Part shown: positions 2,629 to 45,189 of the stretch, one piece after another
Layout: each line of letters starts with the position of its first letter
How positions within the stretch are numbered: the first letter of the stretch is position 1
Source: Deltaproteobacteria bacterium
Lineage (GTDB): Bacteria > Desulfobacterota > GWC2-55-46 > UBA9637
Assembly: GCA_016219285.1 (NCBI GenBank)
Contig: JACRNJ010000032.1
Location: 21,721 to 85,720, forward strand
DNA length: 64,000 nt
Reading direction: 5' to 3'
Position numbers and translations under genes: made by a program
Notes under the pieces: model-generated
What the model was told of the DNA's origin: nothing
The model's input: the letters and a program-made list of their open reading frames with translations, nothing else
Databases searched by the model: none

Positions 2629-3387
2629 ATGCAAGATTCAAGATGCAAGATTCAAGTTTTACATCTTAAGTTTCTACTCGCAACTATTTTCTTACAACTT
2701 GCAACTTGCAACCTGCAACTGTCTTTTGCCCTTACGCCGCAGGAGGTACTTGAAAAGGTAGATAATATAAGGGCGCCTGACAGGACATTCATCTTTAACT
2801 TAAAGGTAACTGTTAAAAAAGGGGATGATGAAGATGTTTCAGAATTTTCTGTAAGGGTCAAAGATGCAAAGAAAAGCCTTGTTGTCTTTAAATCACCCCC
2901 ATCAAATAAAGGACGGGTATTGCTTATGGTAGAAGATAATATGTGGATATACATACCAGGGACAAGAAACCCCATAAGAATATCGCCCCAGCAGCAGATT
3001 ATGGGGAGGGTATCAAACGGAGATGTTGCAAGGGTTGTATATAATCTCGATTACAACGTTGAATCATTGGAAAATGAAGGGGAAATTATAAAGATGACCC
3101 TCGCTGCAAAGACAAAGGGCGCAGCATATAAAAGTATAAATCTGTGGATAGAAAAGGAGACCTTTAAACCTATCAAGGCAGAATTTTTTGCCCTGTCTGG
3201 TAAACTTTTAAAAACAGGATATTACAAAGGCTACAAAGAGATACTTGGCAAAGAGAGACCAACCATCATAGAGATACATGATGGGATAAAGGAACCAGAG
3301 ATATCCATTATGGAATATAGCAACATAAAACTTGAAGACACTCCCGATGCACACTTTCAGAAGACATTTATGGAAAGGGTGAAATAA
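2629..3387 (+). CDS. LolA-like outer-membrane lipoprotein-sorting / periplasmic carrier-like protein
   Basis: About 250 aa periplasmic protein with a signal peptide (LLATIFLQLATCNLQLSFA). The N-terminal region is encoded by the tandem repeat at 2618-2735. The start could be 2611 or 2629. The gene sits in an ABC/FtsX operon, as expected for a LolA_like family member. Confidence 0.55.
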   Translation: MQDSRCKIQVLHLKFLLATIFLQLATCNLQLSFALTPQEVLEKVDNIRAPDRTFIFNLKVTVKKGDDEDVSEFSVRVKDAKKSLVVFKSPPSNKGRVLLMVEDNMWIYIPGTRNPIRISPQQQIMGRVSNGDVARVVYNLDYNVESLENEGEIIKMTLAAKTKGAAYKSINLWIEKETFKPIKAEFFALSGKLLKTGYYKGYKEILGKERPTIIEIHDGIKEPEISIMEYSNIKLEDTPDAHFQKTFMERVK

Positions 3388-3395
3388 AATGTAAA

Positions 3396-4673
3396 ATGCA
3401 AAATGTAAAATGCAAAATTAAGGTAACTTTTTTTGTCTTTTTTATTTTTCTCTCTTGCCTATCCCATGCGCAGGAATTTACCTATGAATTCAGCGGCAAG
3501 ATTATTGAACAGCCCGCATATTATTTTTTAAAAGATGATTATCTCCTGAACCCCAACGGAGAGATACTGGATTTTTCTCTCTCAAAAAACAGGTTTTATG
3601 GCGATATAAATTTCAACCTTGATTACCAGAATTTTAAATTCATCTCAAAATTTAGACCAACAGTTTTATCGGATAAAAAGGATACAAATATAAAAACCAT
3701 TATTGATGACGGGTATCTGGACATTGGTTTTAAAGATAGGTTTTTCCTCTATCTTGGCAAAAGGAATATAAGGGATGGGGTTGGGCTCGGCTCAAATCCT
3801 ACAGATTTCTTAGGTGAAGGAAAAGAGGTTGATATGGCAAAGAGGGAGGAGGAGAGGCGGGTGGAGAGGGAGGGTAATTACCTGATCGGTATGGATACCT
3901 ATTTTAAAGATATTACATTAACTGCAATATTTGCCCCCCATATAAAGGAACTACAGGATGAAAAGGATAGGGTCATTTTAAAGGCAGGTTTTCTGATGGA
4001 GCCGCTCAATACAGACATCTCTTTTCACTATTTTAACAGCAGCATACCGGGGGCGGGCATTAACATATCCACCACCATTGGAGAGAGTCTTGTTCTGCAC
4101 ACAGAGTCAGCCCTTCGATGGGGAAGCGATAGAAAGATAGTCAGGCTCATCCAGGAGGGAAGCCCAAACCTATACGAAATATATCATCCCGATGACAATC
4201 AAACAATCTATCCACATATAGCAGCAGGAGGACATTATACATTTAAAGACGGAACGAATGTTATATTAGAATACCTATATAATGGCGATGGATACAATAG
4301 CGAAGAATGGAATACTCTCAAAGGATTTATAAAATACAGCTATGACGAATACAAAACCGGCTTTTTAAAAGAGCTTATGAAAGGGAACCTACTGCAGGCA
4401 AACGAGATAATGAGATTCAGGGAGTTGAGGAGAAACTATATCTTTGCAAGGATAAGCAACTCCGGCATCACAGAAAAGATAGACGGGGCATTGGTCTTCC
4501 TTTTAAATACAGATGATAAGAGCTTTCTCATTTATCCATCCGTGGATTATAAGATCAAGGGCAATACTACCGTAGGATTTTCTGCCATAATATTTGTCGG
4601 TGAAAATGACACGGAATTTGGTATGACCCACTGGGGGAGCGAAGTTAGTATGGTATATAGGTATTTCTTTTGA
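3396..4673 (+). CDS. putative outer membrane beta-barrel protein
   Basis: Signal peptide ending SHAQEF. The sequence alternates amphipathic beta-like segments rich in Y and G. The C-terminus RYFF ends in an aromatic residue, typical of OMP beta-barrels. It is the last gene of the exporter cluster. Confidence 0.45.
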   Translation: MQNVKCKIKVTFFVFFIFLSCLSHAQEFTYEFSGKIIEQPAYYFLKDDYLLNPNGEILDFSLSKNRFYGDINFNLDYQNFKFISKFRPTVLSDKKDTNIKTIIDDGYLDIGFKDRFFLYLGKRNIRDGVGLGSNPTDFLGEGKEVDMAKREEERRVEREGNYLIGMDTYFKDITLTAIFAPHIKELQDEKDRVILKAGFLMEPLNTDISFHYFNSSIPGAGINISTTIGESLVLHTESALRWGSDRKIVRLIQEGSPNLYEIYHPDDNQTIYPHIAAGGHYTFKDGTNVILEYLYNGDGYNSEEWNTLKGFIKYSYDEYKTGFLKELMKGNLLQANEIMRFRELRRNYIFARISNSGITEKIDGALVFLLNTDDKSFLIYPSVDYKIKGNTTVGFSAIIFVGENDTEFGMTHWGSEVSMVYRYFF

Positions 4674-6268: not shown

Positions 6269-6940
6269 CTAATTCATATGGTCCATTATCTCTTTTTTAA
6301 CAGGTCTAACCGGCCATATGCCATTTATATTGTAGCCGTTTGATATCTTCTGCCCTACAGCTCTTGCCTCGCTGGCCGAGGAATAAAACCCTATTCTGAG
6401 TCTATACCACTGCTTTCCTTTAAAGTCAAATTCCGTCACATATGCATTGTAATTATCCTGCTTAAATCTTTTTACCATAGCCTCTGCTTCTTCTCTTGAT
6501 ACATAAGATGCGATATGCACAACCCAAGGTTTATACGTCGTCTTCTTGCTGACAGATGGTTTTTGTTCCTCTTTCTTCACTGTTGTTTCCCTTTCAGGAG
6601 CAGATACTTTGTCCTGAGGTTTTTTCTCAATCATGGTTTTTACATCTTCTTTCTTTTTAACCTCAGGTTTCACAACACCAGGCTTGACAGGTGAAATTTC
6701 GGGTTTAGCCAATGCTGGCGCCTGCGCTTGAGCAGCGGCTGGTTTTGCTTCTTCTTTTTTTACTTCGGATGCCGCAGGAACCTCTATCTTCATCCTCTTG
6801 ACAATCTTCTCAGGCTCTGGAGGCGGAGTAACAGCCGTGCCGTGAAAAAATAAAAAATAGGCAATAATCCCTCCGCCTATTACTACAAGTGTAATAAGAA
6901 GCATGCTTGTTCTTTTGTTAAAACTATCGGCAATCCCCAT
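6269..6940 (-). CDS. SPOR-domain cell division protein (membrane anchored, Pro/Lys/Glu-rich linker)
   Basis: N-terminal transmembrane segment (LLITLVVIGGGIIAYFLFF), a low-complexity PEK-rich linker, and a C-terminal SPOR-like fold (HIASYVSREEAEAMVKRF ... YRLRIGFYSSASEARAV). Confidence 0.7.
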   Translation of the reverse strand: MGIADSFNKRTSMLLITLVVIGGGIIAYFLFFHGTAVTPPPEPEKIVKRMKIEVPAASEVKKEEAKPAAAQAQAPALAKPEISPVKPGVVKPEVKKKEDVKTMIEKKPQDKVSAPERETTVKKEEQKPSVSKKTTYKPWVVHIASYVSREEAEAMVKRFKQDNYNAYVTEFDFKGKQWYRLRIGFYSSASEARAVGQKISNGYNINGIWPVRPVKKEIMDHMN

Positions 6941-7065
6941 GGCCTCACCTCCCTAATGGTATTTGATTCACTCAGTCAAATGCTCTAAATTGGTTAGAGA
7001 TCATTATTTTATAACTTAGCAATGTACATCTCTCTAACATTTAACCTATTGATTTGTATAGACTC

Positions 7066-7128
7066 GCAGGGTGGGCTGTGCCCACCGCAAACATTGTCCT
7101 TTGTAATGGTGGGCAAAGCCCACCCTGC
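7066..7128. repeat. REPIN-like palindromic doublet (gggtgggcNNtgcccacc x2, inverted), copy 1 of 3
   Basis: gcagggtgggctgtgcccaccgcaaacattgtcctttgtaatggtgggcaaagcccaccctgc. Each half is itself a palindrome. Near-identical copies lie at 23151-23212 and 49400-49463. Confidence 0.85.
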
Positions 7129-7696
7129 TATTTTCATCCTCCTTTGTGAGCCAATGGCTCGTGAGGATTTGCCCCGAAAAATAAAAACTAAATGCATTTT
7201 TCGAGCAGGTTAACAAGCGCAGACCCAAAAATCAATTTTTGGAATAAGTATATCTTAAAAAAGAAACGTTTGAAAGGAGTTTTTCAGCAGCCTGCTGGAT
7301 TGCACAGATTAAAACTCCCTGGAATATCTGTGTCCTCGCTTTTCCTAATCTGCGCAATCAAGGCTGTTGGTGTCTTTTTCAACAATTTTTTCTTGTCTTT
7401 GGTTTCAACTCATCCTTGCTGTAAGAATAAAAATACATGCATTTTTATGGTTAACCCTTTGGCCATAGCAAAATGAAAAAGCAAATGGAAAAACGAAAAA
7501 AAGCATGTTGACCCTTAACAAATTATGTGTTTTACTTTTGTAAAATGTTTATCCATTTTTAACAAAGCAGCTGGTTTTGCGAGGCAAAATCAGCAAAAGA
7601 GGTTTAGGCATTGAATAAGCCGTCTAGTTGCATGCCTAACAGCATCTTGCACGGATGGCAGGTTGAATTTTATATGAATGGCTCTCTATAAATAAG

Positions 7697-8674
7697 ATGA
7701 AGATTAAGATTAAAATTTCACGCTGCGACCCTATGGGTAAAGGCTGGTGCGAGCCGTTTCTCCAAGCCTATGACATAGAGGTAAAAGAGGGTATGACTAT
7801 CCTTGATGCCATTCATCTTGTGAAGGATGTGCAGGATGGGACGTTGGCATTCAGACGGTCTTGCCGGAGCGCTATCTGCGGTTCCTGTGCTGTGAACATA
7901 AATGGTTTTCCAAAACTTGCTTGTAAGACACAGCTTATTACCGAATACAGGAAAAAAGAGTCAATGGTCATTGAACCCCTTTCAAACCACAGGGTGATAA
8001 AAGACCTTGTTGTTGATTTTAATCCATTCTGGGATAAGATAAATAAAGTGGAACCGTGGTTGAATCGTAAGTCGGCTATCAGCCATCAGCCATCAGCTGT
8101 CAGCAAAAAAGATGTTTTGAAGATAGATAATTCCAGCAAATGTATTATGTGCGGATGCTGTAATGGAGCCTGTAATACATTAGAGATTGATAAACATTTT
8201 ATTGCCCCGGCTGCTTTGGCAAAGGCATGGAGGTTTGTGGGTGATGTAAGGGAAGGGGAGAAGAAGAAAAGACTGGAAAAGCTCAGCGAGGCGCATGGTA
8301 TGTGGGATTGCGTAAGATGCGTAAACTGCACTCAGTATTGCCCAAAAGACGTAGCGCCACTTCAGGCAATAGAAAGATTAAGGGCAGAGGCAATAAATCA
8401 AGGAGTTATAGATAATCATGGCGCAAAACATGTAAAATCAATGGTTGATTCCGTGAAGAGGGTGGGCAGACTGGATGAGGCCGCAATGACTTTCAAGACG
8501 CTTGGTTTTTTGCGCTCTTTAGGCATGATACCCTTTGGGTTGAAAATGGAAATGCACGGAAAAATGCCTATGCCGCTCATATTTCCGCAGATTGAAAAAA
8601 TTGAAGAGGTGAAGAAAATATATGAGGAGATAGAGAAGAGAAAGGAGCAGGTTGAGGTTAAGGTAGAGAAGTAA
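7697..8674 (+). CDS. succinate dehydrogenase/fumarate reductase-type iron-sulfur subunit (FrdB/SdhB-like) with C-terminal extension
   Basis: 2Fe-2S ferredoxin motif CRSAICGSCAVNING plus two 4Fe-4S motifs CIMCGCCNGACN and CVRCVNCTQYCP. An in-frame simple-sequence insert lies at 8077-8104. A C-terminal extension of about 80 aa is present. Confidence 0.75.
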   Translation: MKIKIKISRCDPMGKGWCEPFLQAYDIEVKEGMTILDAIHLVKDVQDGTLAFRRSCRSAICGSCAVNINGFPKLACKTQLITEYRKKESMVIEPLSNHRVIKDLVVDFNPFWDKINKVEPWLNRKSAISHQPSAVSKKDVLKIDNSSKCIMCGCCNGACNTLEIDKHFIAPAALAKAWRFVGDVREGEKKKRLEKLSEAHGMWDCVRCVNCTQYCPKDVAPLQAIERLRAEAINQGVIDNHGAKHVKSMVDSVKRVGRLDEAAMTFKTLGFLRSLGMIPFGLKMEMHGKMPMPLIFPQIEKIEEVKKIYEEIEKRKEQVEVKVEK

Positions 8675-8748
8675 AACATAAAATCCTAATGTCTAATTTC
8701 TAATGAAATACCCACGAGCCTTTGGCTCACAAAGGGGCATGAAAATTA

Positions 8749-8836
8749 ACCCCACCCTCACCTTAATCCTCTCCCTGAGGGAGAGGAGACTTTTTTGTTC
8801 CCTCCCATTCAAGGGGAGGGTTAGGGTGGGGATGGG
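8749..8836. repeat. about 88 bp structured palindromic element (copy A), inverted partner at 9879-9963
   Basis: accccaccctcacc...ctccctgagggagagg...ccctcccattcaaggggaggg...gggtggggatggg. The ends are self-complementary and there are two internal mini-hairpins. Confidence 0.8.
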
Positions 8837-8948
8837 CTATTTTCGGAGCAAATACCCAATGACTGAATTTCTCATTTATGCTTTTTGTCATTTGATATTT
8901 TATTGGAAATTAGGATTTAGAAATTAGAAATTTTTAATTTAAATCGTT

Positions 8949-9839
8949 ATGGCCAAAACCTTGAAATACGCCTACTACCCCGGTTGTGCATCCCAGGCAG
9001 TAACAAAAGAGGCGAATTCAACAACCCGGAAGGTTGCCAAAATACTTGGTATAGAACTCCATGATATGCCAAAGGCAAACTGCTGCGGTGCTGGCCTCTT
9101 GACCGACTACGACTATGACCTTTCTGTCGCCCTGAATGCAAGGATCTTTGCGCAGGCAGAGGAGATAGGCATGGATATAATGACTATATGCTCCACATGC
9201 CTTATGGTGATGTCAACGGCAAACAGGGATTTAAAAAGCGACCCAAAGCTTTTAGAAAAGACAAATGCAATATTGGCAGCGGCAGGTTTACGATACAATG
9301 GCACTATAGAGGTAAAACAGCTTCTTTGGGTTTTAGCTGAAGATTATGGGTTGGAGAATTTGAAGAAGAAAGTGGCAATGCCGTTAAAGAATCTGAAAGT
9401 AGCTCCATTTTACGGATGCCATTCCTTAAGGCCGTCAGATGCATTGGGGTTTGATGACCCTGAAAGGACGTGGTCTCTGGAGGCGGTAATTACAATACTT
9501 GGGGCAGAGGTAGTAGAGTATGAAGGGAAAAACAAGTGCTGCGGATTTCAGGTGGATATGATAACAGAGGATACGGCAGTGGAGATGACAGGAAAGAGGC
9601 TTTTGGATGCTAAAAATGAAGGTGGAAATTGCATGGTTACACCGTGCCCTTTCTGTCATATAAACCTTGACAATTATCAGGGTATGGCAGAGAGAAAACT
9701 AAATATGAAGATAGGCATGCCGGTTTTTCATCTTGCTCAATTGGTTGGCCTTGCCATGGGTATGACAGCCGAGGATCTGGAGCTGTCAAGGCATCTTGTG
9801 TCAGCGAAGGATGTCCTGAAGGAGGCAAATCTTTTATAG
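8949..9839 (+). CDS. CCG-domain protein (HdrB / SdhE / GlpC-like cysteine-rich subunit)
   Basis: Two CCG-type cysteine-rich domains: CxnCCGAG ... CSTC, and CxnCCGF ... CPFC. It pairs with the upstream FrdB-like gene. Confidence 0.7.
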   Translation: MAKTLKYAYYPGCASQAVTKEANSTTRKVAKILGIELHDMPKANCCGAGLLTDYDYDLSVALNARIFAQAEEIGMDIMTICSTCLMVMSTANRDLKSDPKLLEKTNAILAAAGLRYNGTIEVKQLLWVLAEDYGLENLKKKVAMPLKNLKVAPFYGCHSLRPSDALGFDDPERTWSLEAVITILGAEVVEYEGKNKCCGFQVDMITEDTAVEMTGKRLLDAKNEGGNCMVTPCPFCHINLDNYQGMAERKLNMKIGMPVFHLAQLVGLAMGMTAEDLELSRHLVSAKDVLKEANLL

Positions 9840-9878
9840 CGTTCTAAATTGGAGGCTTTGAGGCAAAACCCATGAAAT

Positions 9879-9963
9879 CCCATCCCCACCTTTGTCCTCC
9901 CCTTGAAGGGGAGGAAACTATTTTCCTCTCCCTCAGGGAGAGGATGAAGGTGAGGGTGGGGTT
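9879..9963. repeat. about 88 bp structured palindromic element (copy B, reverse complement of copy A)
   Basis: cccatccccacc...ccccttgaaggggagg...ctccctcagggagagg...ggtgagggtggggtt. This is the reverse complement of 8749-8836, so the pair brackets the CCG gene in inverted orientation. Confidence 0.8.
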
Positions 9964-10025
9964 AAGGGATTTAATGTAAGGTCTCCTATTTTCTACGCTA
10001 CCAAATCTTTTATTAGGAGGTTAAT

Positions 10026-10679
10026 TTGAGCCTTTTTATCACATTTGAAGGAGTTGAGGGAAGCGGAAAAACAACGCAGATGGAGATGTTGAAAGAACAT
10101 CTGGAATGGAAAGGTTTCCATGTTGTTTCTACAAGGGAACCCGGTGGAACAGAACTGGGTGAAAAAATAAGAGGTGTGCTCTTAAATATGGAAGGCCAAA
10201 CTATTGCCCCATGGTCAGAACTTTTACTTTATGAAGTTTGCAGAGCGCAACTGGTTAGCGAGGTCATAAAGCCAGCGCTTCTTGATAAAAAAATAGTTTT
10301 ATGCGACAGATTTGCAGATTCTACTATAGTCTATCAAGGCTGTGTCAGAGGCCTAAACCTTGAGGCGATTGCCAGCCTTAATGAGTGGGTAAGTCAGGGT
10401 GTAATGCCAACCATTACATTTATTATAGATTGTCAGCCTGAAATTGGATTGAAACGCGCATTGGCACGGATAGACACCCGGCCAAACGGCAATAAGGAGG
10501 ATCGTTTTGAAAGGGAAAATATAGAGTTTCATAAACGTATACGGGACGGCTATCTGCAATTAGCTAAAGAATCGCCGGATAGAATTAAGGTTATAAACGG
10601 AAATAGAGATATTCCTGTAATTCACAAGGAGATATGTGGTATACTGGACACAAAATTTGAGGCGATGGGGGAGAAATAG
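10026..10679 (+). CDS. tmk: thymidylate kinase
   Basis: P-loop FEGVEGSGKTTQ, a DRF/DRY region, and a length of 217 aa. Gene order tmk-holB matches Bacillus. Confidence 0.9.
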   Translation: MSLFITFEGVEGSGKTTQMEMLKEHLEWKGFHVVSTREPGGTELGEKIRGVLLNMEGQTIAPWSELLLYEVCRAQLVSEVIKPALLDKKIVLCDRFADSTIVYQGCVRGLNLEAIASLNEWVSQGVMPTITFIIDCQPEIGLKRALARIDTRPNGNKEDRFERENIEFHKRIRDGYLQLAKESPDRIKVINGNRDIPVIHKEICGILDTKFEAMGEK

Positions 10680-10800
10680 GTATAATGCCAAATGTCAAAA
10701 TCCAAATTACAAATAAATTTCAAATGATAAATCTCAAATGACAAATTTAACGTTTGAATTTTGAAATTTGGGTTTTATTTGACATTTGGATTTTGATATT
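10680..10800. repeat. intergenic heptamer-type tandem/inverted simple repeat (caaatg/caaat units)
   Basis: aaatgtcaaaatccaaattacaaataaatttcaaatgataaatctcaaatgacaaattt ... followed by its near reverse complement, giving a long imperfect palindrome. Confidence 0.8.
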
Positions 10801-10820
10801 TGGATTTGTCTATCTATATT

Positions 10821-11882
10821 ATGTCATTCAAAGATATTTTAGGACATGATAGAGAAATAAGCATTTTGAAGAAAGCCATTTCAAATAATAGAGTTGCTCA
10901 TTCATTTTTATTTGCTGGGCATGAAGGGATAGGCAAACGGCTTGTTGCCATTTCCGTTGCAAAGGCGCTTAACTGCTCTGCTGCAAACAAGAGCCCCTCC
11001 TTATCGCCATTTAACAAAACAGGATGTGATGGAAGTAATAATGATTTTTGCGGGGTTTGTCAAAACTGCAAGGATATAGAGGCCTCTTCATACAGCGATG
11101 TCTTTCTGATTGAGCCGAGAGAGCCGGAATCCAAGGGCGGGAAAATAGACCATATAGCCGGCACAATAAAGATTGATGCTGTGAGAGATGTTCAGCAAAG
11201 GCTGTCTTACAGGGCAGCAAGAGGCGGCAAAAAGGTGTGTATAGTAGACTGCGCCGAGAAGATGAATAAAGAGGCTCAGAATGCATTCCTTAAAACACTT
11301 GAAGAGCCACCTTCTGATTCCATTATAATATTGGTTGTTAGCGATGGCGGAGCCATTTTGCCGACAATAACTTCTCGCTGCCAAAGGATCAATTTTACCC
11401 CGCTGCCGCAAAATGTTATGCTTGACATAGTCGGAGAACGATTGGGGGCAGCAAAAGAAACTGCTGTGCTGCTTGCTTGTTTGAGTGGAGGCAGCATAGG
11501 AAAGGCATTAAACTTGGATATGGATACCATGCTTGAACAAAGGAAAAAGATTGTTGAAGTATTATCACGGTTATCTTTGGATGATGCAGAAGGAATGTTC
11601 AAAGCAGCTGAAAAGATATCAAAAGGAGAGAGGCCTGTAGAGTCTCTGGAGTTTCTCAAAATATGGTATAGAGATATTGCGATATTAAAGGAAGGTGTGG
11701 AGGATATGGTTGTAAATTCAGACCTCCTGCCTGTTTTAAGACAGCATATGGAGCGCCAAACTTTTTCAAGGCTTATATCCGATTTTCAAATGGTGCTAAA
11801 TGCCCAATCTGATATTATGCCGCCAAGGTATGCAAATAAACAATTGACTATTGAAAATTTGCTTATGCAGCTTGCCACATAA
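10821..11882 (+). CDS. holB: DNA polymerase III subunit delta-prime
   Basis: AAA+ clamp-loader N-terminus (AHSFLFAGHEGIGKRLVA), a zinc-module-like CxxC...CxxC segment, and a SRC-like TSRCQ motif. Follows tmk. Confidence 0.8.
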   Translation: MSFKDILGHDREISILKKAISNNRVAHSFLFAGHEGIGKRLVAISVAKALNCSAANKSPSLSPFNKTGCDGSNNDFCGVCQNCKDIEASSYSDVFLIEPREPESKGGKIDHIAGTIKIDAVRDVQQRLSYRAARGGKKVCIVDCAEKMNKEAQNAFLKTLEEPPSDSIIILVVSDGGAILPTITSRCQRINFTPLPQNVMLDIVGERLGAAKETAVLLACLSGGSIGKALNLDMDTMLEQRKKIVEVLSRLSLDDAEGMFKAAEKISKGERPVESLEFLKIWYRDIAILKEGVEDMVVNSDLLPVLRQHMERQTFSRLISDFQMVLNAQSDIMPPRYANKQLTIENLLMQLAT

Positions 11883-12075
11883 TGATTTACGAATTACGAT
11901 TTACGAATTACGATTTTAAATACTTCACCTTACTTGCAAATCATAAATCTATACACAGCGACATAAATAGTTGCGCATACAGAGCGTCAGAACAAAGCAG
12001 ACCGAGGAGCAACACAGGTATGCGAAGTTATGACGCTCTGTATAAAATCGTAAATCATAATGGAGGATTGATATA

Positions 12076-14383: not shown

Positions 14384-14622
14384 GTCAGCGACATAAATTT
14401 GTAGTATGCCGATTTACCCCGTTAGAAGCTTTTCAATTGAAGATTTTGATGAAACTTTATTAACATTAACTCCCTTAAAATGAACTTCTAACGGGGTTTA
14501 TCGGCGATTTTAAACTTGTCCCCGCAGGCTTTAAGCTGGGATACGCCCATGGGGGCACCCAACAGAAAGTTGGGTCGGGCAAACTACATCTACATTATTT
14601 TTATCGTCAACTATAAAGCCTT
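14384..14622. mobile_element. composite/nested MITE-like element (family: gtagtNtgcc...caaactac) directly after the metG stop
   Basis: Shares both ends (agcgacataaatttgtagt...ggcacccaacagaaNgttgggtcgggcaaactac...atttttNtcgtc) with the 45190-45312 copy. It carries an extra internal inverted-repeat insert (ccccgttagaag...cttctaacgggg). Confidence 0.8.
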
Positions 14623-15174: not shown

Positions 15175-16599
15175 TTGTCAAACCAATATAAACTCATAGA
15201 CACCCATGCCCATCTTGACGACCCTAAATTTAAGAACGACCTGGATGACGTGATAAAAAGGGCAAAGGATGCAGGCGTTGGACATATAATCACTGTAGGC
15301 ACATGGCAAATTGAAAAAGGACTCAAGCATGTTGCAGAGCTTGCCGATGAATACGATTTTATCTATACTGCCCTTGGTGTTCATCCACATGATGCCAAAG
15401 ATGCAAATGATGACGCATTTAATGAAATCAAGGAACTGGCGCTCCATCCAAAGGTTATCGCCATTGGCGAAACAGGGCTTGATTATCATTACGAACACTC
15501 GCCGAGGGATGTTCAAAAAGCAGTATTTGCAAGGCAAATCCAAATAGCCCGTGAATTAAATCTGCCTCTTACCATTCACAGCAGGGAAGCACAGAACGAC
15601 ACTTTGGATATGCTTGCGCAGGAAGGTGTCAGAGACATCGGAGGTGTTTTGCATTGTTTTTCCGGCAGCTATGAAATGGCAAAGAAATGCCTTGATATGG
15701 GTCTCTATCTCTCCTTTACAGGTGTTGTCACATTTCCAAAGGCGGCAAATGTCCATGAGGTTGTAAAAAAGATTCCTATTGAAAGAATGCTCCTTGAAAC
15801 CGATTGCCCGTATCTGGCTCCTGAGCCGCACAGGGGCAAGAGGAATGAACCGGCATTTGTTGCAGAAACTGGAAAAAGGATTTCTGAGATAAAGGGATTA
15901 TCGTTTGACGATGTGGCAAGGATTACCACATTAAATGCAAAGGAACTATTCGGCATTGAGAAAGAAAATAAAGAAACCAGAATAGCGTATCCCATCAGGA
16001 ATTCACTTTACCTCAATATCACCAACCGATGCACCAACTACTGCACATTCTGCGCAAAGCATGCCCCCGCAGGCTTTAAGCGGGGGTCGAATGATTATAC
16101 TGTCAAGGGTCATTATTTGAGATTGAAGCAAGAGCCGGTCTTTCTTGATGTAATAATGGCTGTGGGCGACAGGCCTGCTGAAAAATATAACGAGATTGTA
16201 TTTTGCGGGTTTGGCGAGCCGCTTATAAGACTCGACCTTGTTAAAGAGGTTGGATTGTTTCTAAAAAAACAGGGTTGTAAGATACGGATAGATACAGACG
16301 GCCTTGCCAATCTTGTTCATGAAAGAAATATCCTGCCTGAACTTAAGTTTGTGGATACAATCTCCGTAAGTCTCAATGCCCCGGATTCAGCAACATATCA
16401 AAAACTCATCAAAACACCATTTGGCGACAAGGCATTTCCTGCCATAGTTTGGTTTTTGAAAGAGGCAAAAAAGCATATTTCAACGGTTGTTGCCACCGTA
16501 GTTGCTGTGCCAGAACTTGATATAGAGCCGTGCAGGAAATTGGCCGAAGATGAGCTCGGCGTTGGTTTCAGGGTGAGGGAGTATGATGAGGTGGGATAA
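15175..16599 (+). CDS. tatD: fusion protein: TatD-family metal-dependent hydrolase (N-terminal) plus TatD-associated radical SAM domain (C-terminal)
   Basis: TTG start. N-terminus DTHAHLDD ... GLDYHY ... ETDCPYL is a TatD fold. The C-terminal part of about 200 aa has CTNYCTFC (CxxxCxxC) and GFGEPL, a radical SAM core. It forms a single uninterrupted ORF of 474 aa downstream of metG, as Bacillus metS-yabD. Confidence 0.8.
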   Translation: MSNQYKLIDTHAHLDDPKFKNDLDDVIKRAKDAGVGHIITVGTWQIEKGLKHVAELADEYDFIYTALGVHPHDAKDANDDAFNEIKELALHPKVIAIGETGLDYHYEHSPRDVQKAVFARQIQIARELNLPLTIHSREAQNDTLDMLAQEGVRDIGGVLHCFSGSYEMAKKCLDMGLYLSFTGVVTFPKAANVHEVVKKIPIERMLLETDCPYLAPEPHRGKRNEPAFVAETGKRISEIKGLSFDDVARITTLNAKELFGIEKENKETRIAYPIRNSLYLNITNRCTNYCTFCAKHAPAGFKRGSNDYTVKGHYLRLKQEPVFLDVIMAVGDRPAEKYNEIVFCGFGEPLIRLDLVKEVGLFLKKQGCKIRIDTDGLANLVHERNILPELKFVDTISVSLNAPDSATYQKLIKTPFGDKAFPAIVWFLKEAKKHISTVVATVVAVPELDIEPCRKLAEDELGVGFRVREYDEVG

Positions 16600-16745
16600 A
16601 TACAAATTCCAAATTGCAAATCCCAAATAGCAAATAAATCTCAATCACCAATTCCCAATTTCCCAATCATATCCTTTGTTTGGCTATTGTAATTTGGTCA
16701 TTGGTTATTATTTGAATATTGATGCTTGCAATTTGGCGCTTATAT

Positions 16746-20218: not shown

Positions 20219-20320
20219 ATTCGTGCTAAGAGCATAGCACAAACTTTATGAATTGCAAGGAGGGGCATTCTTTTCTTGAACAATCCATAGAAATTGATAT
20301 TATGATTGAGATTTTAGAAT

Positions 20321-20373
20321 GTAGTTTGCCCATTTATGGGCGTCTTAAAAATCGCCGATAAATCGGCAACTAC
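20321..20373. mobile_element. MITE-like palindromic element, canonical 53 bp copy
   Basis: gtagtt-tgcccatttatgggcg-tcttaaaaat-cgccgataaatcggca-actac. It has terminal inverted repeats and two internal perfect palindromes. Confidence 0.85.
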
Positions 20374-20392
20374 AACTTGAGGTTATAGAACC

Positions 20393-22716: not shown

Positions 22717-22721
22717 AGAAT

Positions 22722-22790
22722 GTAGTGTGCCCATTTATGGGCGTATTTAAAAACGTAGATAAACCGATAAGCTGCAAATCATTGACTACA
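22722..22790. mobile_element. MITE-like element, degenerate copy
   Basis: gtagtgtgcccatttatgggcg...cgtagataaaccgataagc...gactacaatc. Confidence 0.6.
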
Positions 22791-22797
22791 ATCAAGA

Positions 22798-23763
22798 TTG
22801 CCGATGTTAAACAAACCAAAGAAAAATTCTAAAACGCCGATAAATCGGCAACTACAATCTTACGGTTTTTCTCCCTTAAAAAGATTCAGCCAAAACTTTC
22901 TCACCGATGAACGGATTGCCGGCAAGATTATTGATGCGTTTGAACTGAAAGAGGACGATACGGTAATAGAAATAGGCCCCGGTCTTGGCATGCTGACAGA
23001 GCGGCTGTTGGACACAGGGGCAAAGGTTCTGGCAATAGAGATAGATAAGGGTTTTGCAGATATTCTTGATAAAAGATTCGGCAGCAGGGATAATTTTGAA
23101 AAAATAATATGTCAAGATGCATTAAAAATTTCGTATAAAGAATTGTTTTGTAGGGTGGGCTGCGCCCACCAAAAACAGACGGATAAAAATGGCGGGCAAA
23201 GCCCGCCCTACAACGATAACAAGAAGCTTGCCCCTGCGGGCATAAAACAGTGGTTTAAGGTTATTTCCAATCTCCCTTACAACATCTCAACACCCATTAT
23301 TTTTAAACTTCTTGAGGAGCGCGAGATATTTTCAATGTTCCTGCTTATGCTGCAAAAAGAGGTGGCCGAACGGATTGTATCGCAGCCTGACACAAAAGAG
23401 TACGGTGTTTTGTCTATATTTGTTCAACTGTTTGCAGATGTAAATATAGAGTTTGATGTGCCGCCATCTTCATTTTATCCAAAACCAAATGTCTATTCTT
23501 CTGTTGTTAGGTTCACTATATTGCAGAAACCGAGAGTTGAAATATATGACATCAGCTTTTTTAAAAGAGTTGTTAAGGCGTCTTTTGGGCAGAGGAGGAA
23601 AACCCTGCTAAATGCCTTAAAGGTTTTAAAACTGACAACCCAGGAGATTAGAAATGCCTTAGAGCAATCTGGTATAGAGCCGCAGGCAAGGGGGGAGACC
23701 CTTAGCCTTAAAGAATTTGGAATATTAAGCAATAACTTGAAGAAAATAGCAGAACATATTTAA
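22798..23763 (+). CDS. rsmA: 16S rRNA (adenine1518/1519-N6)-dimethyltransferase KsgA/RsmA with in-frame REPIN-derived insert
   Basis: Conserved motifs FSQNFL, IEIGPGLGMLT and NLPYNIST are present. A half-MITE (22832-22860) encodes part of the N-terminus. The full REPIN-like doublet at 23151-23212 is translated in frame as CRVGCAHQKQTDKNGGQSPPYN. Confidence 0.85.
   Translation: MPMLNKPKKNSKTPINRQLQSYGFSPLKRFSQNFLTDERIAGKIIDAFELKEDDTVIEIGPGLGMLTERLLDTGAKVLAIEIDKGFADILDKRFGSRDNFEKIICQDALKISYKELFCRVGCAHQKQTDKNGGQSPPYNDNKKLAPAGIKQWFKVISNLPYNISTPIIFKLLEEREIFSMFLLMLQKEVAERIVSQPDTKEYGVLSIFVQLFADVNIEFDVPPSSFYPKPNVYSSVVRFTILQKPRVEIYDISFFKRVVKASFGQRRKTLLNALKVLKLTTQEIRNALEQSGIEPQARGETLSLKEFGILSNNLKKIAEHI
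23151..23212. repeat. REPIN-like palindromic doublet, copy 2 of 3, located inside the rsmA coding sequence
   Basis: tagggtgggctgcgcccaccaaaaacagacggataaaaatggcgggcaaagcccgccctaca. Confidence 0.85.
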
Positions 23764-24233: not shown

Positions 24234-24899
24234 ATGTCCATTTCCGTCATAATTCCAACCTTGAATGAAGAAGATAATCTTGAACATACCTTGAAATCAG
24301 TTGGCCAAGATGCGGAGATTATTATTGCAGACGCCGGAAGCAGTGATTCCACAATCAAAATAGCCAATGGGTTCACAGACAAGATTATCATGTCGGAAAA
24401 AGGAAGAGGCGCTCAGATGGATAACGGGGCAAGAATGGCGACAGGCGATATATTCCTTTTCCTACATGCAGACACAAGGCTTCCTGATGGCTGGATGGAA
24501 AAAGTTGCAGAAGCGCTAAAAGATGCTAAAGTTGTTGGAGGGGGGTTCAGGTTAAAAATAAACTCAGGAAAATTCTCTTTTAGTATTATAGAGGCAATAG
24601 TTAATCTTCGGTCAAGACGCCTTGGCTTTATCTACGGGGACCAGGCTATATTTGTCAGAAGGGATGTCTTTTTATCGGTTGGAGGTTTTATGGGGCTTCC
24701 ACTGATGGAGGATGTGGACTTAATGAGAAGGCTCAAGAAGGTTGGCAAGGTTATTTTAGTGGATGCGCAGGCCTCTACATCTCCGAGGCGCTGGGAGAAG
24801 AGAGGTGTTTTGAGGACAACTTTAAGAAACTGGATGTTTTTGAGCCTTTATTATCTTGGTGTTTCTCCGCAAAAATTATATAAATGTTATTATCAGTAG
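24234..24899 (+). CDS. family 2 glycosyltransferase
   Basis: N-terminal pattern SVIIPTLNEE...IIADAGSSD...GRGAQMDNG...GDIFLFLHADT is a GT-A fold with a DxD region. The ATG at 24234 is preferred over the ORF-track start at 24177, which lies in the hairpin. Confidence 0.7.
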   Translation: MSISVIIPTLNEEDNLEHTLKSVGQDAEIIIADAGSSDSTIKIANGFTDKIIMSEKGRGAQMDNGARMATGDIFLFLHADTRLPDGWMEKVAEALKDAKVVGGGFRLKINSGKFSFSIIEAIVNLRSRRLGFIYGDQAIFVRRDVFLSVGGFMGLPLMEDVDLMRRLKKVGKVILVDAQASTSPRRWEKRGVLRTTLRNWMFLSLYYLGVSPQKLYKCYYQ

Positions 24900-25014
24900 T
24901 CTGCCGATTTATCGGCGATTGTAACTCAAACCTTCAGATTTGAGTTTTTCAAGGCTAAAGCCTTGAGTTACAAAATGCGCCCATAAATGGGCAGGCTGCA
25001 AAAATATTAACTAC
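24896..25014. mobile_element. MITE-like element, inverted orientation with nested internal hairpin insert
   Basis: gtagtctgccgatttatcggcg...(gtaactcaaa...ttgagttac insert)...cgcccataaatgggcag...aactac. Confidence 0.8.
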
Positions 25015-28142: not shown

Positions 28143-29489
28143 TTATTTGGCGCTGACCGGTATTGTAAACCTAAAAGTGGTTCCTTTGTCCAGTTCACTT
28201 TCTATTGAAATAGTGCCGCCGTGCCTCTCAATTATATGCCTTGTCATGGCAAGGCCAAGACCTGTGCCTTTTGTTGTTTTTATAACATTACCAGCCCTGA
28301 AGAATTCTTCAAAGATGTGCGGCATGTCATTTGACGGTATGCCAATCCCTGTATCTTTTATCTCCGCAATAATGTAGCCATTTTTTCGTGAAACCTTTAT
28401 CCAGACATTTCCTCCATGTTGAGTATATTTGAACGCATTGGCAATGAGGTTTAGGAAGGCATAGGTTATTAATTCCCTGTCAGCCTTTATATCTGGCAAC
28501 TGCGCATCAATTTCTATGTTTAACTGTATATCCTTTTCTCCCATCTTCGACGATGCAATCTCCACAGCGGTATCTATAGCCTCTTTTATATTAAATATCT
28601 TCAGATTAAGATTTTTCTCCGCCCTTATTCTGGAGAGATCAAGAAGGTCTTTTGCATAATGATGGAGAAATTCTGTTTTTTTCTGAATTCTCTGCAAAAC
28701 CTCTTTTACCTTTTCATCAAGGGTACCGGCAAACCCGCCTATCACTACCTCCAAAAGGCTCTGAATGGAGGCAAGGGGAGACTTTAAATCATGGCTGACC
28801 ATCTTTACATATTCATCTTTAAGTCTATCCTTTTCCAATAATTTCAGGTGAGCCTCCTCTAACTCTTTTTCCCTGTTTTTAAGCTTTTCTGCCAGGGATG
28901 CAGTGAAAAAGGTGGCGATGAAAATGGTGGATGTCAATACGAATGATATAGCTGCCGTATATATCTTATTTTTGTAAAGGTCTATGCCCAAAAATCCATT
29001 TACAGAGTGGTGAGGTAGAGTGTTTAGATATTCAAGCGTAAAGAGGCCGACTGTCAGAATAGAAATAATGCATGCCTGGATATAGGCCTCTTTTTTTGAG
29101 AGGAGCATGCTCGTAAGTATAGTATGGAAGATGAAATAAAATATAAATGGGTTTTCAGCGCCGCCTGTAAAGTGTATGAGAACAGTCAGGCTCAAAATGT
29201 CCAGCATACTCTGAAGAATCGCAAATCTCCGTATGGTCTTATGCAGATTGCCGGCAGATCTCTTGTTTATATAAAACTTAAAAATGGCATTATAAAGAGC
29301 TATGAATATGGCGATGAGATATACAGGAAGGTCAGGAAAGGAGACATTGAATAGATAGATAGACGTAAACGTTGCGGCAATAATAAATATCACAGCAGCC
29401 CAGCGTATATTTATGAGCCACTTTAGTCTTTCTACGAGTTCTTCTTGCCACAGATCTGTCTTATGCACATTTGTTTGCAGTTGCCGCAT
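28143..29489 (-). CDS. membrane sensor histidine kinase
   Basis: N-terminal 5-6 transmembrane segments, HisKA H-box MVSHDLKSPL, and an HATPase (DTGIGIP...GTGLGLAM). Confidence 0.85.
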   Translation of the reverse strand: MRQLQTNVHKTDLWQEELVERLKWLINIRWAAVIFIIAATFTSIYLFNVSFPDLPVYLIAIFIALYNAIFKFYINKRSAGNLHKTIRRFAILQSMLDILSLTVLIHFTGGAENPFIFYFIFHTILTSMLLSKKEAYIQACIISILTVGLFTLEYLNTLPHHSVNGFLGIDLYKNKIYTAAISFVLTSTIFIATFFTASLAEKLKNREKELEEAHLKLLEKDRLKDEYVKMVSHDLKSPLASIQSLLEVVIGGFAGTLDEKVKEVLQRIQKKTEFLHHYAKDLLDLSRIRAEKNLNLKIFNIKEAIDTAVEIASSKMGEKDIQLNIEIDAQLPDIKADRELITYAFLNLIANAFKYTQHGGNVWIKVSRKNGYIIAEIKDTGIGIPSNDMPHIFEEFFRAGNVIKTTKGTGLGLAMTRHIIERHGGTISIESELDKGTTFRFTIPVSAK

Positions 29490-29530
29490 TTATTGGGCTT
29501 ATTAAAGGCGCCGATAAATCGGCACACTAC
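29476..29530. mobile_element. MITE-like element, degenerate copy
   Basis: gcagttgccgcatttattgggc...ggcgccgataaatcggcacactac. Confidence 0.55.
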
Positions 29531-29913
29531 TTTTTCCTAAGAAGTTTTTCAACTTTTACAAGCAGGTCTTTTGGTTTTATGGGTTTTTCAACCAATTCAT
29601 CCACTGGCAGATAATCTTCGTCGGTTTCTTTGCTGAATTTAAAACCAGTCTCTTTGCCTATAGATGTAAGCATAAGTATTGGTATCTTGGAAAGCTCCGC
29701 ATGGTTTTTTAATTTGTAGCTTGTTTGAAAGCCCTGATCCTTGGTTTTCATTACAACATCAAGGATTATGAGGTCTGGCTTCTCCGCCTCCGCTTTTTTA
29801 TAGCCAGCGTCGCCTTCACTGGCAGATATGACTTTATAACCCTTACTTTCAAGCACTATCTTGATTGCTTCAACTATATCAGCGTCATCGTCAATAATTA
29901 GGATTTTGGACAT
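29527..29913 (-). CDS. single-domain response regulator (CheY-like receiver)
   Basis: ILIIDDD...DLIILDVVM...LMLTS with Asp and Lys at canonical positions. Length 128 aa with no output domain. Confidence 0.85.
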   Translation of the reverse strand: MSKILIIDDDADIVEAIKIVLESKGYKVISASEGDAGYKKAEAEKPDLIILDVVMKTKDQGFQTSYKLKNHAELSKIPILMLTSIGKETGFKFSKETDEDYLPVDELVEKPIKPKDLLVKVEKLLRKK

Positions 29914-37341: not shown

Positions 37342-37428
37342 CGGCTTTGTAAAAAGTCCATCTGTGGAGCCTGTTCCGAGCAAAGTGAGAAATCTTGGTC
37401 TTCGCTGCGGCTTCTGCGTTCAACACCT

Positions 37429-37483
37429 GTAGTTTGCCCATTTATGGGCGTTTTTTAAAAGCGCCGATAAATCGGCAGACTAC
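37429..37483. mobile_element. MITE-like element, canonical copy
   Basis: gtagtttgcccatttatgggcgttttttaaaagcgccgataaatcggcagactac. Confidence 0.85.
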
Positions 37484-37530
37484 ACCCATATTCTATAGAT
37501 ACAGAAGAAAGAAAAACCATTTTATTATTC

Positions 37531-40164: not shown

Positions 40165-41376
40165 TTGAAGAGAATATACCTTGATAACAATGCAACAACA
40201 CCAATCCACCCTGAGGTTTTTGATGCGATGCTTCCATATCTGAAACATGAATTTGGAAATCCATCCAGCATCCATTGGGCAGGGAGGAATCCCAGAAGGG
40301 TTGTTGATGATGCGAGAGAGAAAGTGACGAAGCTTCTCAATTGTGATGCAAATGAAATCATTTTCACAAGCTGCGGGTCAGAAAGTAACAATCTTGCTAT
40401 AAAGGGAGTTGCCGAATCAAAAAAAGATAAAGGCAACCATATTATTACTACTAAAGTGGAGCATCCAGCCGTTTTGAGTACTTGCAAATACCTTGCAAAA
40501 AACGGTTTTGATGTAACCTTTCTTGATGTTGATAATCATGGCATGCTGGATTTAGACCAGCTTAAAAAGGCAATAACTCCAAAGACAATACTTATTACGA
40601 TAATGTTTTCAAATAATGAGACGGGAGTGATATTTCCCATAGAGGAGATAGGCAAGATTGCAAAAGAGCATAATATTCCTTTCCATACCGATGCTGTTCA
40701 GGGTGTGGGAAAGGTTCCTATAGATGTAAAGAAAATGAATGTAGACCTGTTGACGCTTTCAGGCCATAAGCTCTATGCGCCAAAGGGGATTGGCGCACTC
40801 TATGTCAAAAGAGGTGTAAGGTTGGTGCCATTAATTCATGGCGGTCATCAGGAGCGGAACAGAAGGGGCGGCACAGAAAATGTCGCCGGTATTGTTGCAC
40901 TTGGAAAGGCGTGCGAGATTGCCGCCAGAGACATGGAGCAAGAGATAAAACATATTACAGCTTTAAGAGACAGACTTGAAAAAGGACTGATGCAAAGGGT
41001 AACGCATGTGCGGCTTAATGGCCATCCAATAGAGAGGATTCCTAACACGGTAAACCTAAGTTTTGAATTTGCAGAGGGAGAGTCGCTGCTTTTAAACCTT
41101 GATATGAAGGGGATAGCTGCATCGTCTGGTTCGGCATGCACATCCGGAACATTGGAGCCGTCCCATGTGCTTGTGGCTATGGGTGTTCCGATGGAGGCAT
41201 CTCACAGTTCTGTGCGATTTAGCCTTGGGCGTGGGAATACGATAGAGGATATTGACTATGTTATAGATGTCTTGCCGGCAATGGTGGAAAGGATGAGGAG
41301 CATGTCGCCGCTTTATTCTACGATTACCGGAAAAGGTGAGAATATAACGTTCAGTGAAAGCAATTGCAGCCATTAA
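40165..41376 (+). CDS. iscS: cysteine desulfurase IscS/NifS
   Basis: PLP Lys motif SGHKLYAPKGIGALYV and active-site Cys loop SSGSACTSG. Length 403 aa. Confidence 0.9.
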   Translation: MKRIYLDNNATTPIHPEVFDAMLPYLKHEFGNPSSIHWAGRNPRRVVDDAREKVTKLLNCDANEIIFTSCGSESNNLAIKGVAESKKDKGNHIITTKVEHPAVLSTCKYLAKNGFDVTFLDVDNHGMLDLDQLKKAITPKTILITIMFSNNETGVIFPIEEIGKIAKEHNIPFHTDAVQGVGKVPIDVKKMNVDLLTLSGHKLYAPKGIGALYVKRGVRLVPLIHGGHQERNRRGGTENVAGIVALGKACEIAARDMEQEIKHITALRDRLEKGLMQRVTHVRLNGHPIERIPNTVNLSFEFAEGESLLLNLDMKGIAASSGSACTSGTLEPSHVLVAMGVPMEASHSSVRFSLGRGNTIEDIDYVIDVLPAMVERMRSMSPLYSTITGKGENITFSESNCSH

Positions 41377-41509
41377 GAAAGATTCAAGATTTAAGATACA
41401 AGATTTAAGATACAAGATGCAATATGCAAGATTCAATATTTATAATTATTTTTGGCTGCAATCTGAAACTTGTAACTTGCAACCATATTCATTGAAAGGA
41501 GATTGAGAT
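41377..41509. repeat. intergenic tandem simple repeat (aagatttaagatacaagat units) plus tgcaa-type tail
   Basis: gattcaagatttaagatacaagatttaagatacaagatgcaatatgcaagattcaa...ctgcaatctgaaacttgtaacttgcaacc. Confidence 0.8.
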
Positions 41510-45183: not shown

Positions 45184-45189
45184 ATTATA

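Follow-up and report, generated by a model that had tools for sequence, protein, structure and literature searches.

In this study, we analysed a 64,000-nucleotide (nt) stretch of contig JACRNJ010000032.1 from a Deltaproteobacteria bacterium, referred to here as the window, and focused on a gene for a protein with two CCG domains that is bracketed by two palindromic repeats. These repeats are called the upstream and downstream cores below, and handles such as L003 denote the other sequences with which the window was compared. The genes and cores at the locus are as follows, with positions counted in the window.

7697-8674, plus strand: sdhB/frdB-like gene for an iron-sulfur (Fe-S) subunit of 325 amino acids (aa); Pfam Fer2_3 (1.6e-31) and Fer4_8
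8750-8836, plus strand: upstream core palindrome, 87 nt, in what we name the canonical orientation (CCCCACCC arm first)
8949-9839, plus strand: sdhE-like gene, 296 aa, with a double CCG domain (Pfam CCG twice, 4.3e-30)
9879-9965, minus strand: downstream core, inverted with respect to the upstream core
10026-10679, plus strand: tmk (thymidylate kinase; Pfam Thymidylate_kin, 1.2e-48), the conserved 3' neighbour (synteny in L003, L004, L009, L011 and L012)
10800-11882: holB, after tmk

The original prediction, which was made from the sequence of the window, described the two elements as reverse complements of each other. This was confirmed by a repeat finder and by alignment, with boundaries 1-2 nt away from those first given. 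The repeat finder paired positions 8746-8802 with 9909-9965 (57 nt, 88% complementary) and positions 8797-8836 with 9879-9918 (40 nt, 85% complementary). The upstream core and the reverse complement of the downstream core showed a mean column identity of 88%, and their longest exact identity was 22 nt. The cores, each of about 87 nt, lay in opposite orientation 1.04 kb apart and bracketed exactly one gene. The predicted self-complementary ends (CCCCACCCTCACC / GGTTAGGGTGGGG, at 8750-8762 and 8819-8831 in the upstream core) and internal hairpins (ctccctgagggag and cccctt(c)gaagggg) were also present. The predicted size of 88 base pairs (bp) held for the core but not for the repeated unit, which was a 144-nt insertion upstream (8715-8858) and a 168-bp element downstream (9835-10002). 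Each core folded with -50 to -65 kcal/mol and a z-score of about -5 to -6, which no shuffle equalled. In the window, the inner hairpin gave 4 strand-hits against 0.01 expected and the outer arm gave 6 strand-hits against 0.72 expected, and both were confined to the two cores.

Based on the results described below, we consider, with a probability of roughly 0.85, that the inverted cores flanking the CCG gene were acquired independently of each other and belong to a dispersed family of palindromic repeats that is mostly intergenic.

The repeat family and its triplex motifs

A 24-base core pattern (CCCCACCCTNACC-N3-12-CTCCCTNAGGGAG) was scanned against a species-representative genome collection, and 113 matching stretches were found in many genomes. 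One metagenome-assembled genome (MAG), JAUSKU01, alone contained 26 matches in 23 stretches, and 3-7 matches each occurred in other MAGs labelled Deltaproteobacteria, Desulfuromonadales, Geobacteraceae, Deferrisomatales and Nitrospirae. E. coli genomes contained a median of 5 similar places. Single half-units were found in Betaproteobacteria, Yokenella, Phytobacter and one planctomycete. Complete cores with two hairpins numbered 38, and 31 of them lay outside any stop-to-stop open reading frame (ORF) of at least 150 aa. Pairs of cores bracketed ordinary genes elsewhere: in L045, one 241-aa ORF lay between two direct copies, and in L051, a pair of inverted copies enclosed two ORFs. The palindromes thus proved to be copies of a widespread repeat, which was the outcome that the original prediction had named as speaking against its own interpretation. 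No match for the core pattern, or for the pattern of the downstream element described below, was found in viral contigs, and an association with phages was dropped. An Rfam search of positions 6900-10900 at relaxed thresholds returned only sub-threshold matches to eukaryotic miRNA precursors, as generic long hairpins do, and a known RNA family was rejected.

Modular variants of the core were also observed. Some of them (among L041, L047, L115, L065, L020 and L079) carried a third inserted hairpin, and in others the second hairpin contained an 18-nt insert (GTTTATGCCCTGTGGGTA) within its loop.

Previous work on E. coli has described a repeat, TM_ECO, earlier named BoxC or PIT, with the consensus CCCTCNCCC-N3-6-GGGNGAGGG-N3-GGGNGAGGG (Holder et al. 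2015, PMC4666352; Hoyne et al. 2000 cited there). It forms an intrastrand purine-motif triplex, which was observed in vitro but not stably in vivo, and all its copies in E. coli K-12 are intergenic (PMC4666352). The same study counted 3610 copies in 262 proteobacterial genomes, and its supplement names Geobacter and Desulfobacca genomes (PMC4666352). The repeat is very uniform in sequence, is linked to local genome instability in E. coli, and occurs at five K-12 loci as an inverted repeat of two motifs, with type A and type B pairs (PMC4666352). Promoter or terminator activity of PIT/BoxC was absent in E. coli (PMC4666352).

Both cores in the window consisted of an inverted pair of G/C-rich intrastrand-triplex motifs, one 'AGAG' motif and one 'GGAG' motif. 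In the upstream core, the minus-strand half (CCTCTCCC-TCA-GGGAGAGG-ATTAA-GGTGAGGG) was a perfect motif, and the plus-strand half (CCCTCCCa-TTCAA-GGGGAGGG-TTA-GGGTGGGG) contained one mismatch. Both halves of the downstream core were perfect 8-triad triplex motifs. In total, three of the four half-units (starting at 8786 on the minus strand, 9925 on the plus strand and 9915 on the minus strand) were perfect purine-motif triplex motifs of 8-9 triads. The fourth (plus strand, about 8800-8831), with its one mismatch, was read by eye because the pyrimidine filter of the scan skipped it. No triplex motif was found in 20 shuffled windows. The single half-units of Yokenella, Phytobacter and Betaproteobacteria that matched the core pattern fitted the TM_ECO consensus.

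The two possible folds were compared across the 38 complete cores, the left half of which was in every case fixed by the search pattern, which limits this covariation test. A fold with two local hairpins paired 98.5% of the cells with 12 two-sided changes, which none of 500 shuffles reached; a fold with one long hairpin paired 94.9% of the cells with 7 changes, and 275 of 500 shuffles reached it. The variation among the cores supports the two local hairpins, which the triplex reading needs, better than one long hairpin. Judged by its motif architecture, intergenic location and inverted pairing, the core appears to be a repeat of the BoxC/PIT/TM_ECO kind in an A/T-adapted form. Because its stems are 8 nt long, we assigned it to the same kind and not to TM_ECO in the strict sense.

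Two insertions and their vehicles

The cores were carried by two different units, whose parts are as follows.

8706-8714, plus strand: direct repeat AAATACCCA, left copy, 9 nt; present as a single copy in the empty sites of relatives
8715-8858, plus strand: upstream insertion, 144 nt; a clean 144-nt gap when aligned with the L003 spacer
8715-8749: module X, part of the upstream insertion; small hairpin CGAGCCTTTGGCTC, then ...CATGAAAATTAA
8837-8849: tail CTATTTTCGGAGC, part of the upstream insertion
8850-8858: second copy of the direct repeat AAATACCCA, right bound of the upstream insertion
9827-9834, plus strand: left target-site duplication AAATCTTT, 8 bp, inside the last codons of the CCG gene
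9835-10002, plus strand: miniature inverted-repeat transposable element (MITE), 168 bp, with ISH6-type termini (left end TATAGCGTTCTAAATTGGAGG, right end AAGGTCTCCTATTTTCTACGCTACC) and the downstream core as cargo
10003-10010, plus strand: right target-site duplication AAATCTTT, 8 bp, an exact copy of the left one

For the upstream core, relatives provided the empty site. The spacers between sdhB and the CCG gene in L003 (CCG gene 86% identical) and L151 (88% identical) were colinear and unbroken (...GAAATACCCA|ATGACT...), and the upstream core was also absent from the orthologous spacer of L012. With three relatives showing the empty site, the insertion appears to be private to the lineage of this genome. 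Module X and the tail surrounded cores at a dozen or more loci of other genomes, and a full core with these flanks was found at another locus in L114, which belongs to the assembly that also contains the empty-site L003.

Module X and the core were found in further contexts. In the Nitrospirae-labelled MAGs L068, L069 and L118, a core occurred together with the module-X flanks as at positions 8715-8849 of the window, and the core of L068 was about 94% identical to the upstream core. The presence of cores in MAGs with this label suggests horizontal spread, imprecise taxonomic labels or errors in binning. A third composite repeat lay upstream of sdhB in the window:

7062-7176: palindrome GCAGGGTGGGC...GCCCACCCTGC (7062-7130) abutting an inverted module X (7130-7176)

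Inverted copies of module X therefore bracket sdhB also (7130-7170 and 8706-8746, 88% complementary). A 74-aa ORF at 8703-8927 and a 35-aa ORF called by the gene caller in L012 were rejected as genes, as both are mechanical ORFs across repeat DNA.

For the downstream core, the boundaries were those of a transposable element. The rule for placing them was taken from five copies of the F1 MITE with 8-bp duplications, four of which were exact. The stop codon TAG of the CCG gene (9837-9839) sits within the left end of the MITE. The interior of the 168-bp element contains only the palindrome and no transposase, and the MITE is thus non-autonomous. The MITE was present at the identical site in four related lineages (L012, L132, L150 and L151) and absent from the site in L003, L004, L009 and L011. 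The same type of MITE with a core was also found in L094 in an unrelated context.

The flank pattern of the right-hand end (AGGTCTCCTNTTTTCTACGCTAC) was used for a metagenome scan and was found in 24 contigs. These contigs included MITEs of 224-227 bp with AGTAGCG...CGCTACC termini and 8-bp duplications (exact in 4 of 5), and short MITEs with other cargo (L149 and L138). In L135, an insertion sequence (IS) of about 1526 bp had both of these ends. Intact versions of the IS in L134 and L137 encoded a 411-aa ISH6-family transposase, and the L134 ORF matched the ISH6 model NF041731 with E = 4.4e-53. According to Guerillot et al. (2014, PMC3942029), elements of the ISH6 family duplicate an AT-rich 8-bp target with the consensus AANATNTT, and the family includes a bacterial member, ISDesp5 from Desulfobacterium. 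From the shared ends, we infer that the MITE was probably mobilised by an ISH6-like transposase.

Two further observations were made in these metagenomes. The IS of about 1.5 kb with the 411-aa transposase (L134, 3299-4534 on the plus strand; L137; L135) is apparently active, and the 224-227-bp MITEs form a uniform family in several JGI metagenomes (L126, L133, L136, L143 and L146).

The two cores differ in origin and age, because the upstream core is absent from L003, L151 and L012, and the downstream core belongs to a MITE with its own termini and duplication. The MITE insertion appears to be the older of the two and common to several lineages, and the upstream insertion appears to be private. 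The most likely sequence of events is as follows. The downstream core would have been the cargo of the 168-bp MITE, which an ISH6-family (Mutator-superfamily DDE) transposase would have mobilised in trans. The MITE would have inserted once, and earlier, at the extreme end of the CCG gene, where it would have duplicated the 8 bp AAATCTTT and supplied the present stop codon. The upstream core would have arrived within the 144-nt composite of module X, core and tail in the spacer between sdhB and sdhE, in the own lineage of this genome and bounded by the 9-nt direct repeat. The opposite orientation of the two cores would then be a coincidence.

If the MITE and one copy of the duplication were excised from the region 9827-10030, the CCG ORF would end in ...ANLLLGG*, with a TAA that overlaps the ribosome-binding site and TTG start of tmk. 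This arrangement suggests that sdhE and tmk were formerly tightly coupled and that the MITE now supplies the stop of sdhE. A MITE insertion can, in this sense, re-define the stop codon of a gene.

Conservation of the downstream element and rival explanations

Several results weigh against two independent acquisitions of a dispersed BoxC-like repeat. A strict TM_ECO consensus expression matched neither strand of the window (0 matches), as the stems are 8 nt and not 9 nt, and only two copies of the core occur within the 64-kb window of the source genome. For the upstream insertion, the length of the bounding repeat is ambiguous (6-10 nt, or else a diverged 22-mer, CTAATTTCTAATGAAATACCCA / CTATTTTCGGAGCAAATACCCA, 77%), and the target resembles the element's own flank, which blurs the mechanism of insertion. 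For the MITE, the L134 transposase scored 180.5 bits with NF041731, under the curated cutoff of 240, and Pfam returned only a marginal IS66-type match. Finally, the MITE was 97.6-98.8% identical between the window and L012, L132, L150 and L151, and its flanks were 67-88% identical, which a neutral, selfish reading fails to explain.

The last point was quantified in the same genome pairs. The CCG gene was 85-88% identical, its third codon positions 68-72%, and the other spacer 67.5%, and the excess identity of the MITE had a binomial P of about 1e-7 to 1e-22. The region of high identity ended exactly at the ends of the MITE. The left target duplication had diverged in L012 and L132 (AGATCTTT vs AAATCTTT), which favours a single old insertion. 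Independent recent insertions at the same site, considered as a cause of the identity of about 98%, were disfavoured since the duplication copies differ in L012 and L132. The near-invariance of the MITE could result from selection, from concerted evolution or from repeated replacement.

These data raise the possibility, which we regard as a tentative one, that the MITE with its triplex/hairpin core (and perhaps the upstream copy too) is a domesticated cis-element kept by selection at the junction of sdhE and tmk. Its role could be that of a terminator or insulator between the reductase genes and tmk-holB, or lie in RNA stability, protein binding or replication pausing. The contrast between the MITE on the one hand and the CCG gene and spacer on the other, the coincidence of the edges of identity with the MITE ends, and the diverged left duplication, which argues for one old insertion, are all in its favour. 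So is a run of T on the plus strand after the first inner hairpin of each core (8767-8787, then GACTTTTTTG; 9895-9915, then AACTATTTTC). In the sdhB-sdhE-(tmk) transcript, each core could form a very stable hairpin, in which the first arm-hairpin would be followed by the T-run. Some repetitive extragenic palindromes (REPs) of E. coli attenuate read-through or stabilise RNA, and the cores may act likewise under our preferred reading as well. However, the 38 family copies were not significantly biased in their orientation relative to the genes beside them (20 vs 12 and 18 vs 11, p > 0.2), and the PIT/BoxC repeats of E. coli lack promoter and terminator activity (PMC4666352). For these two reasons, a directional terminator role was rejected despite the T-runs. 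In addition, four related lineages manage without the MITE, the upstream copy occurs in a single genome, and extreme identity between copies is general for this kind of repeat and could be produced by concerted evolution or repeated replacement. Domestication is compatible with a mobile origin, and both may hold.

A narrower version, in which selection at the sdhE-tmk junction has domesticated an ISH6-type MITE with a BoxC-like doublet and keeps it almost unchanged (about 98% identity vs about 68% at neighbouring synonymous sites), is somewhat less likely again. If true, it would imply a sequence-specific function for a kind of repeat that has long been enigmatic. The extreme conservation of the MITE compared with its flanks offers a concrete and testable example for the long-standing problem of the uniformity of BoxC-like repeats. 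It is also possible that ISH6-type MITEs are a vehicle that spreads BoxC/PIT-like motifs, for which Holder et al. saw no link with mobile elements (PMC4666352).

A second explanation regards the palindromes as REP doublets (REPINs) mobilised by a REP-associated tyrosine transposase (RAYT). The relation of singlets and doublets is alike, with single half-units in Beta- and Gammaproteobacteria and full doublets here, GTAG-headed palindromes of other families occur in the window, and the termini of the MITE begin with GTAGCG. However, these termini belong to an IS with a DDE (ISH6-like) transposase and not a Y1 enzyme, and the core is headed by CCCC and not GTAG. No RAYT was noticed among the window ORFs scanned by profile, and the ORFs between the paired cores of L045 and L051 looked ordinary by sequence, with no RAYT-like ORF. 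The single-strand HUH transposition of IS200/IS605-type elements would not be expected to leave an 8-bp target duplication. We therefore consider a REPIN origin improbable.

The least probable explanation, which we rate as very remote, is that of the original prediction, in which the two inverted cores delimit an invertible, phase-variable or deliberately hairpin-insulated cassette that controls the CCG gene: the arrangement itself (two 87-nt cores, 88% alike, inverted, 1.04 kb apart and around exactly one gene) and the reported connection of triplex-motif loci with local genome instability in E. coli (PMC4666352) would fit it, but the cores differ in vehicle and age, the upstream one is missing in L003, L151 and L012 and the downstream one in L003, L004, L009 and L011, core pairs bracket ordinary genes in L045 and L051 through repeat density, exact identity between the cores does not exceed 22 nt, the segment holds the CCG gene only, with MiaB-like, SPOR, sdhB, tmk and holB genes and no recombinase gene as neighbours, and an inversion would separate sdhE from sdhB. 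In L001, which is a separate assembly of this sequence, the CCG gene, element and tmk have the orientation seen in the window, and the assembled contigs of L001 and all relatives contained the reference orientation only. The breakpoints of Logan contigs were also considered as evidence on the repeats and were discarded as uninformative, since the start of L001 lies 69 nt 3' of the upstream element.

Two independent acquisitions thus remain our preferred reading. A gene between inverted palindromes looks like a switch, and a dense dispersed repeat gives this arrangement by chance. For annotation, the useful results are that triplex-motif doublets of the BoxC/PIT type occur commonly among Thermodesulfobacteriota-like and Nitrospirae-labelled MAGs of uncultured bacteria, that they can occupy spacers inside operons, and that one subfamily travels in an ISH6-type MITE with clean 8-bp duplications.

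Reductase genes, other repeats and comparison with known systems

The original prediction had identified a FrdB-like Fe-S protein and an HdrB/SdhE-like CCG protein, and the Pfam and NCBIfam profiles bore this out. SdhB passed the cutoffs of TIGR00384 (227 bits, cutoff 88) and NF004616 (235.8 bits, cutoff 228), and it scored 263 bits with NF009227, under the cutoff of 349. Its translation contains the 2Fe-2S motif CRSAICGSC, the four-cysteine (Cys) motif CIMCGCCNGAC (CxxCxxCxxxC), a complete second four-Cys motif (CVRCVNCTQYCP), which we take to be a hallmark of type E, and a C-terminal extension. In SdhE, both CCG motifs were intact (C13...CCG45-47...CSTC and C157...CCG...CPFC), and all ten Cys were readable. 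The closest models were those of SdhE (NF042965 MFR_anch_SdhE, 250.7 bits, under the equivalog cutoff of 500) and HdrB (TIGR03288, 234 bits, cutoff 345). The profiles and Cys motifs agreed with the predicted Fe-S/CCG part of a type E succinate:quinone reductase (SQR), in a type-E-like form. The predicted alternative, a thiol:fumarate reductase, is unlikely, as TfrB is a single fused polypeptide and the window has two genes; TfrB was rejected on the same ground and on scores of 166 and 36.8 bits with NF004898 (cutoff 385). Most simply, sdhB and sdhE look like intact genes for the Fe-S and CCG subunits of a type-E-like succinate:quinone/fumarate reductase, and the locus can be explained without the elements.

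The prediction that no flavoprotein gene is adjacent also held. No protein with FAD_binding_2 and Succ_DH_flav_C domains was found among the ORFs of at least 150 aa in the 64-kb window, and a tblastn search of the window with the SdhA of a relative gave no match at E <= 1e-3. The order sdhB-sdhE-tmk-holB without an adjacent sdhA was also observed in L003, L004 and L009, and L132 gave no SdhA match either. In contrast, the order sucCD-sdhA-sdhB-sdhE was found in L152 and L153, and sdhA-sdhB-sdhE in L005 and L006. The relatives that carry sdhA are more distant (CCG protein about 73-77% identical), and their sdhA-sdhB-sdhE genes usually follow sucCD. Among the matches looked up from homologue searches for an orphan sdhA in sister MAGs, only canonical sucCD-sdhABE clusters occurred. 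The lack of an sdhA gene beside sdhB-sdhE is a trait of the clade (L003, L004, L009 and L132) and not of this locus, and the 'missing' flavoprotein gene reflects the gene order of the clade.

About 170 nt upstream of sdhB lies the motif TTGACCCTTAACAAATTAT (7509-7527), and a near-identical one (TTGACCCTTGACAAATTAT) occurs in L004 (8778-8796), in a spacer that otherwise cannot be aligned with that of the window. The motif is a candidate promoter, or a candidate operator of the FNR/CRP-like type.

The window contains other repeats and one unusual ORF, as follows.

14398-14420 (approximate), 20316-20375, 22717-22857, 24895-25000, 29472-29531, 37424-37484, 45186-45246: GTAG-headed, REP-like palindromes (GTAGTCTGCCGATTTATCGGCG / TGTAGTTTGCCCATTTATGGGCG), a second dispersed family that occupies many spacers
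2616-2675, 3383-3448, 8679-8703, 8884-8941, 10688-10803, 11862-11935, 16578-16635, 41362-41456, 54511-54586, 55982-56067, 57833-57966: heptamer-periodic, AT-rich low-complexity repeats (e.g. ATTTACGAATTACG), which fill many spacers, include a palindrome with 58-nt arms in the tmk-holB spacer, and have similar counterparts in L003, L011 and L012
33302-33400, 38543-38577, 50753-50773: triplex-type palindromes of other families (e.g. ACACACCCCTAAATCCCCTCTCGAGAGGGG); one other triplex-type family is common to the window and L003 (8600-8645), at a different locus
15175-16599: a single 474-aa ORF that joins a complete TatD_DNase domain to a Radical_SAM domain, either an uncommon fusion or two genes merged into one ORF

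The locus was compared with four known systems. With the type E SQR and the Campylobacter MfrABE enzyme, it shares an SdhB that is extended at its C-terminus and contains two four-Cys ferredoxin motifs, an SdhE that has a pair of CCG domains and takes the place of the haem-b membrane subunits, and, in relatives, an sdhA-sdhB-sdhE cluster beside sucCD. It differs in that sdhA is unlinked in the clade of the window, the equivalog cutoffs were missed, and a repeat-rich spacer of 52-275 nt separates sdhB from sdhE, with no translational coupling.

With the REP/BIME/REPIN repeats of Enterobacteria and Pseudomonas, the cores share the form of short intergenic palindromes that occur singly or as inverted doublets, in mosaic with other short motifs, are possible within operons and give stable RNA hairpins. 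They differ in the lack of a GTAG head, in that no associated RAYT was seen here, and in the DDE-type inverted termini and target duplication of one window copy.

With the MITEs of the ISH6 family (p-MULT 2, Mutator superfamily), the downstream element shares both termini in common with an IS of about 1.5 kb encoding an ISH6-like DDE transposase, an AT-rich 8-bp duplication (AAATCTTT, compared with the family consensus AANATNTT) and its non-autonomous nature. It differs in a transposase under the NCBIfam cutoff (180.5 vs 240 bits), in a cargo that is a triplex-motif palindrome and not IS-derived sequence, in a left end that begins with TA and not AG, and in orthologous copies that are far more conserved than their flanks.

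The closest likeness of the cores themselves is to BoxC/PIT/TM_ECO. Both have a C-rich stem, a loop, a G-rich stem, a short loop (often TTA) and a mirror G-rich stem, with G.G-C and T.A-T triads; both are multi-copy, dispersed and mostly or strictly intergenic, commonly form inverted pairs that make one long palindrome, and combine very high identity between copies with presence or absence that varies among close relatives. The cores differ in stems of 8 nt (not 9 nt), A/T-rich loops and a second loop of 3-5 nt. Their hosts here are groundwater and sediment MAGs with about 40-45% GC that are labelled Deltaproteobacteria, Thermodesulfobacteriota or Nitrospirae, and the doublet, with conserved extra flanks (module X), is the standard form in these hosts. 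In addition, one subfamily here lies inside a MITE, a difference from TM_ECO, for which no link with mobile elements was seen (PMC4666352).

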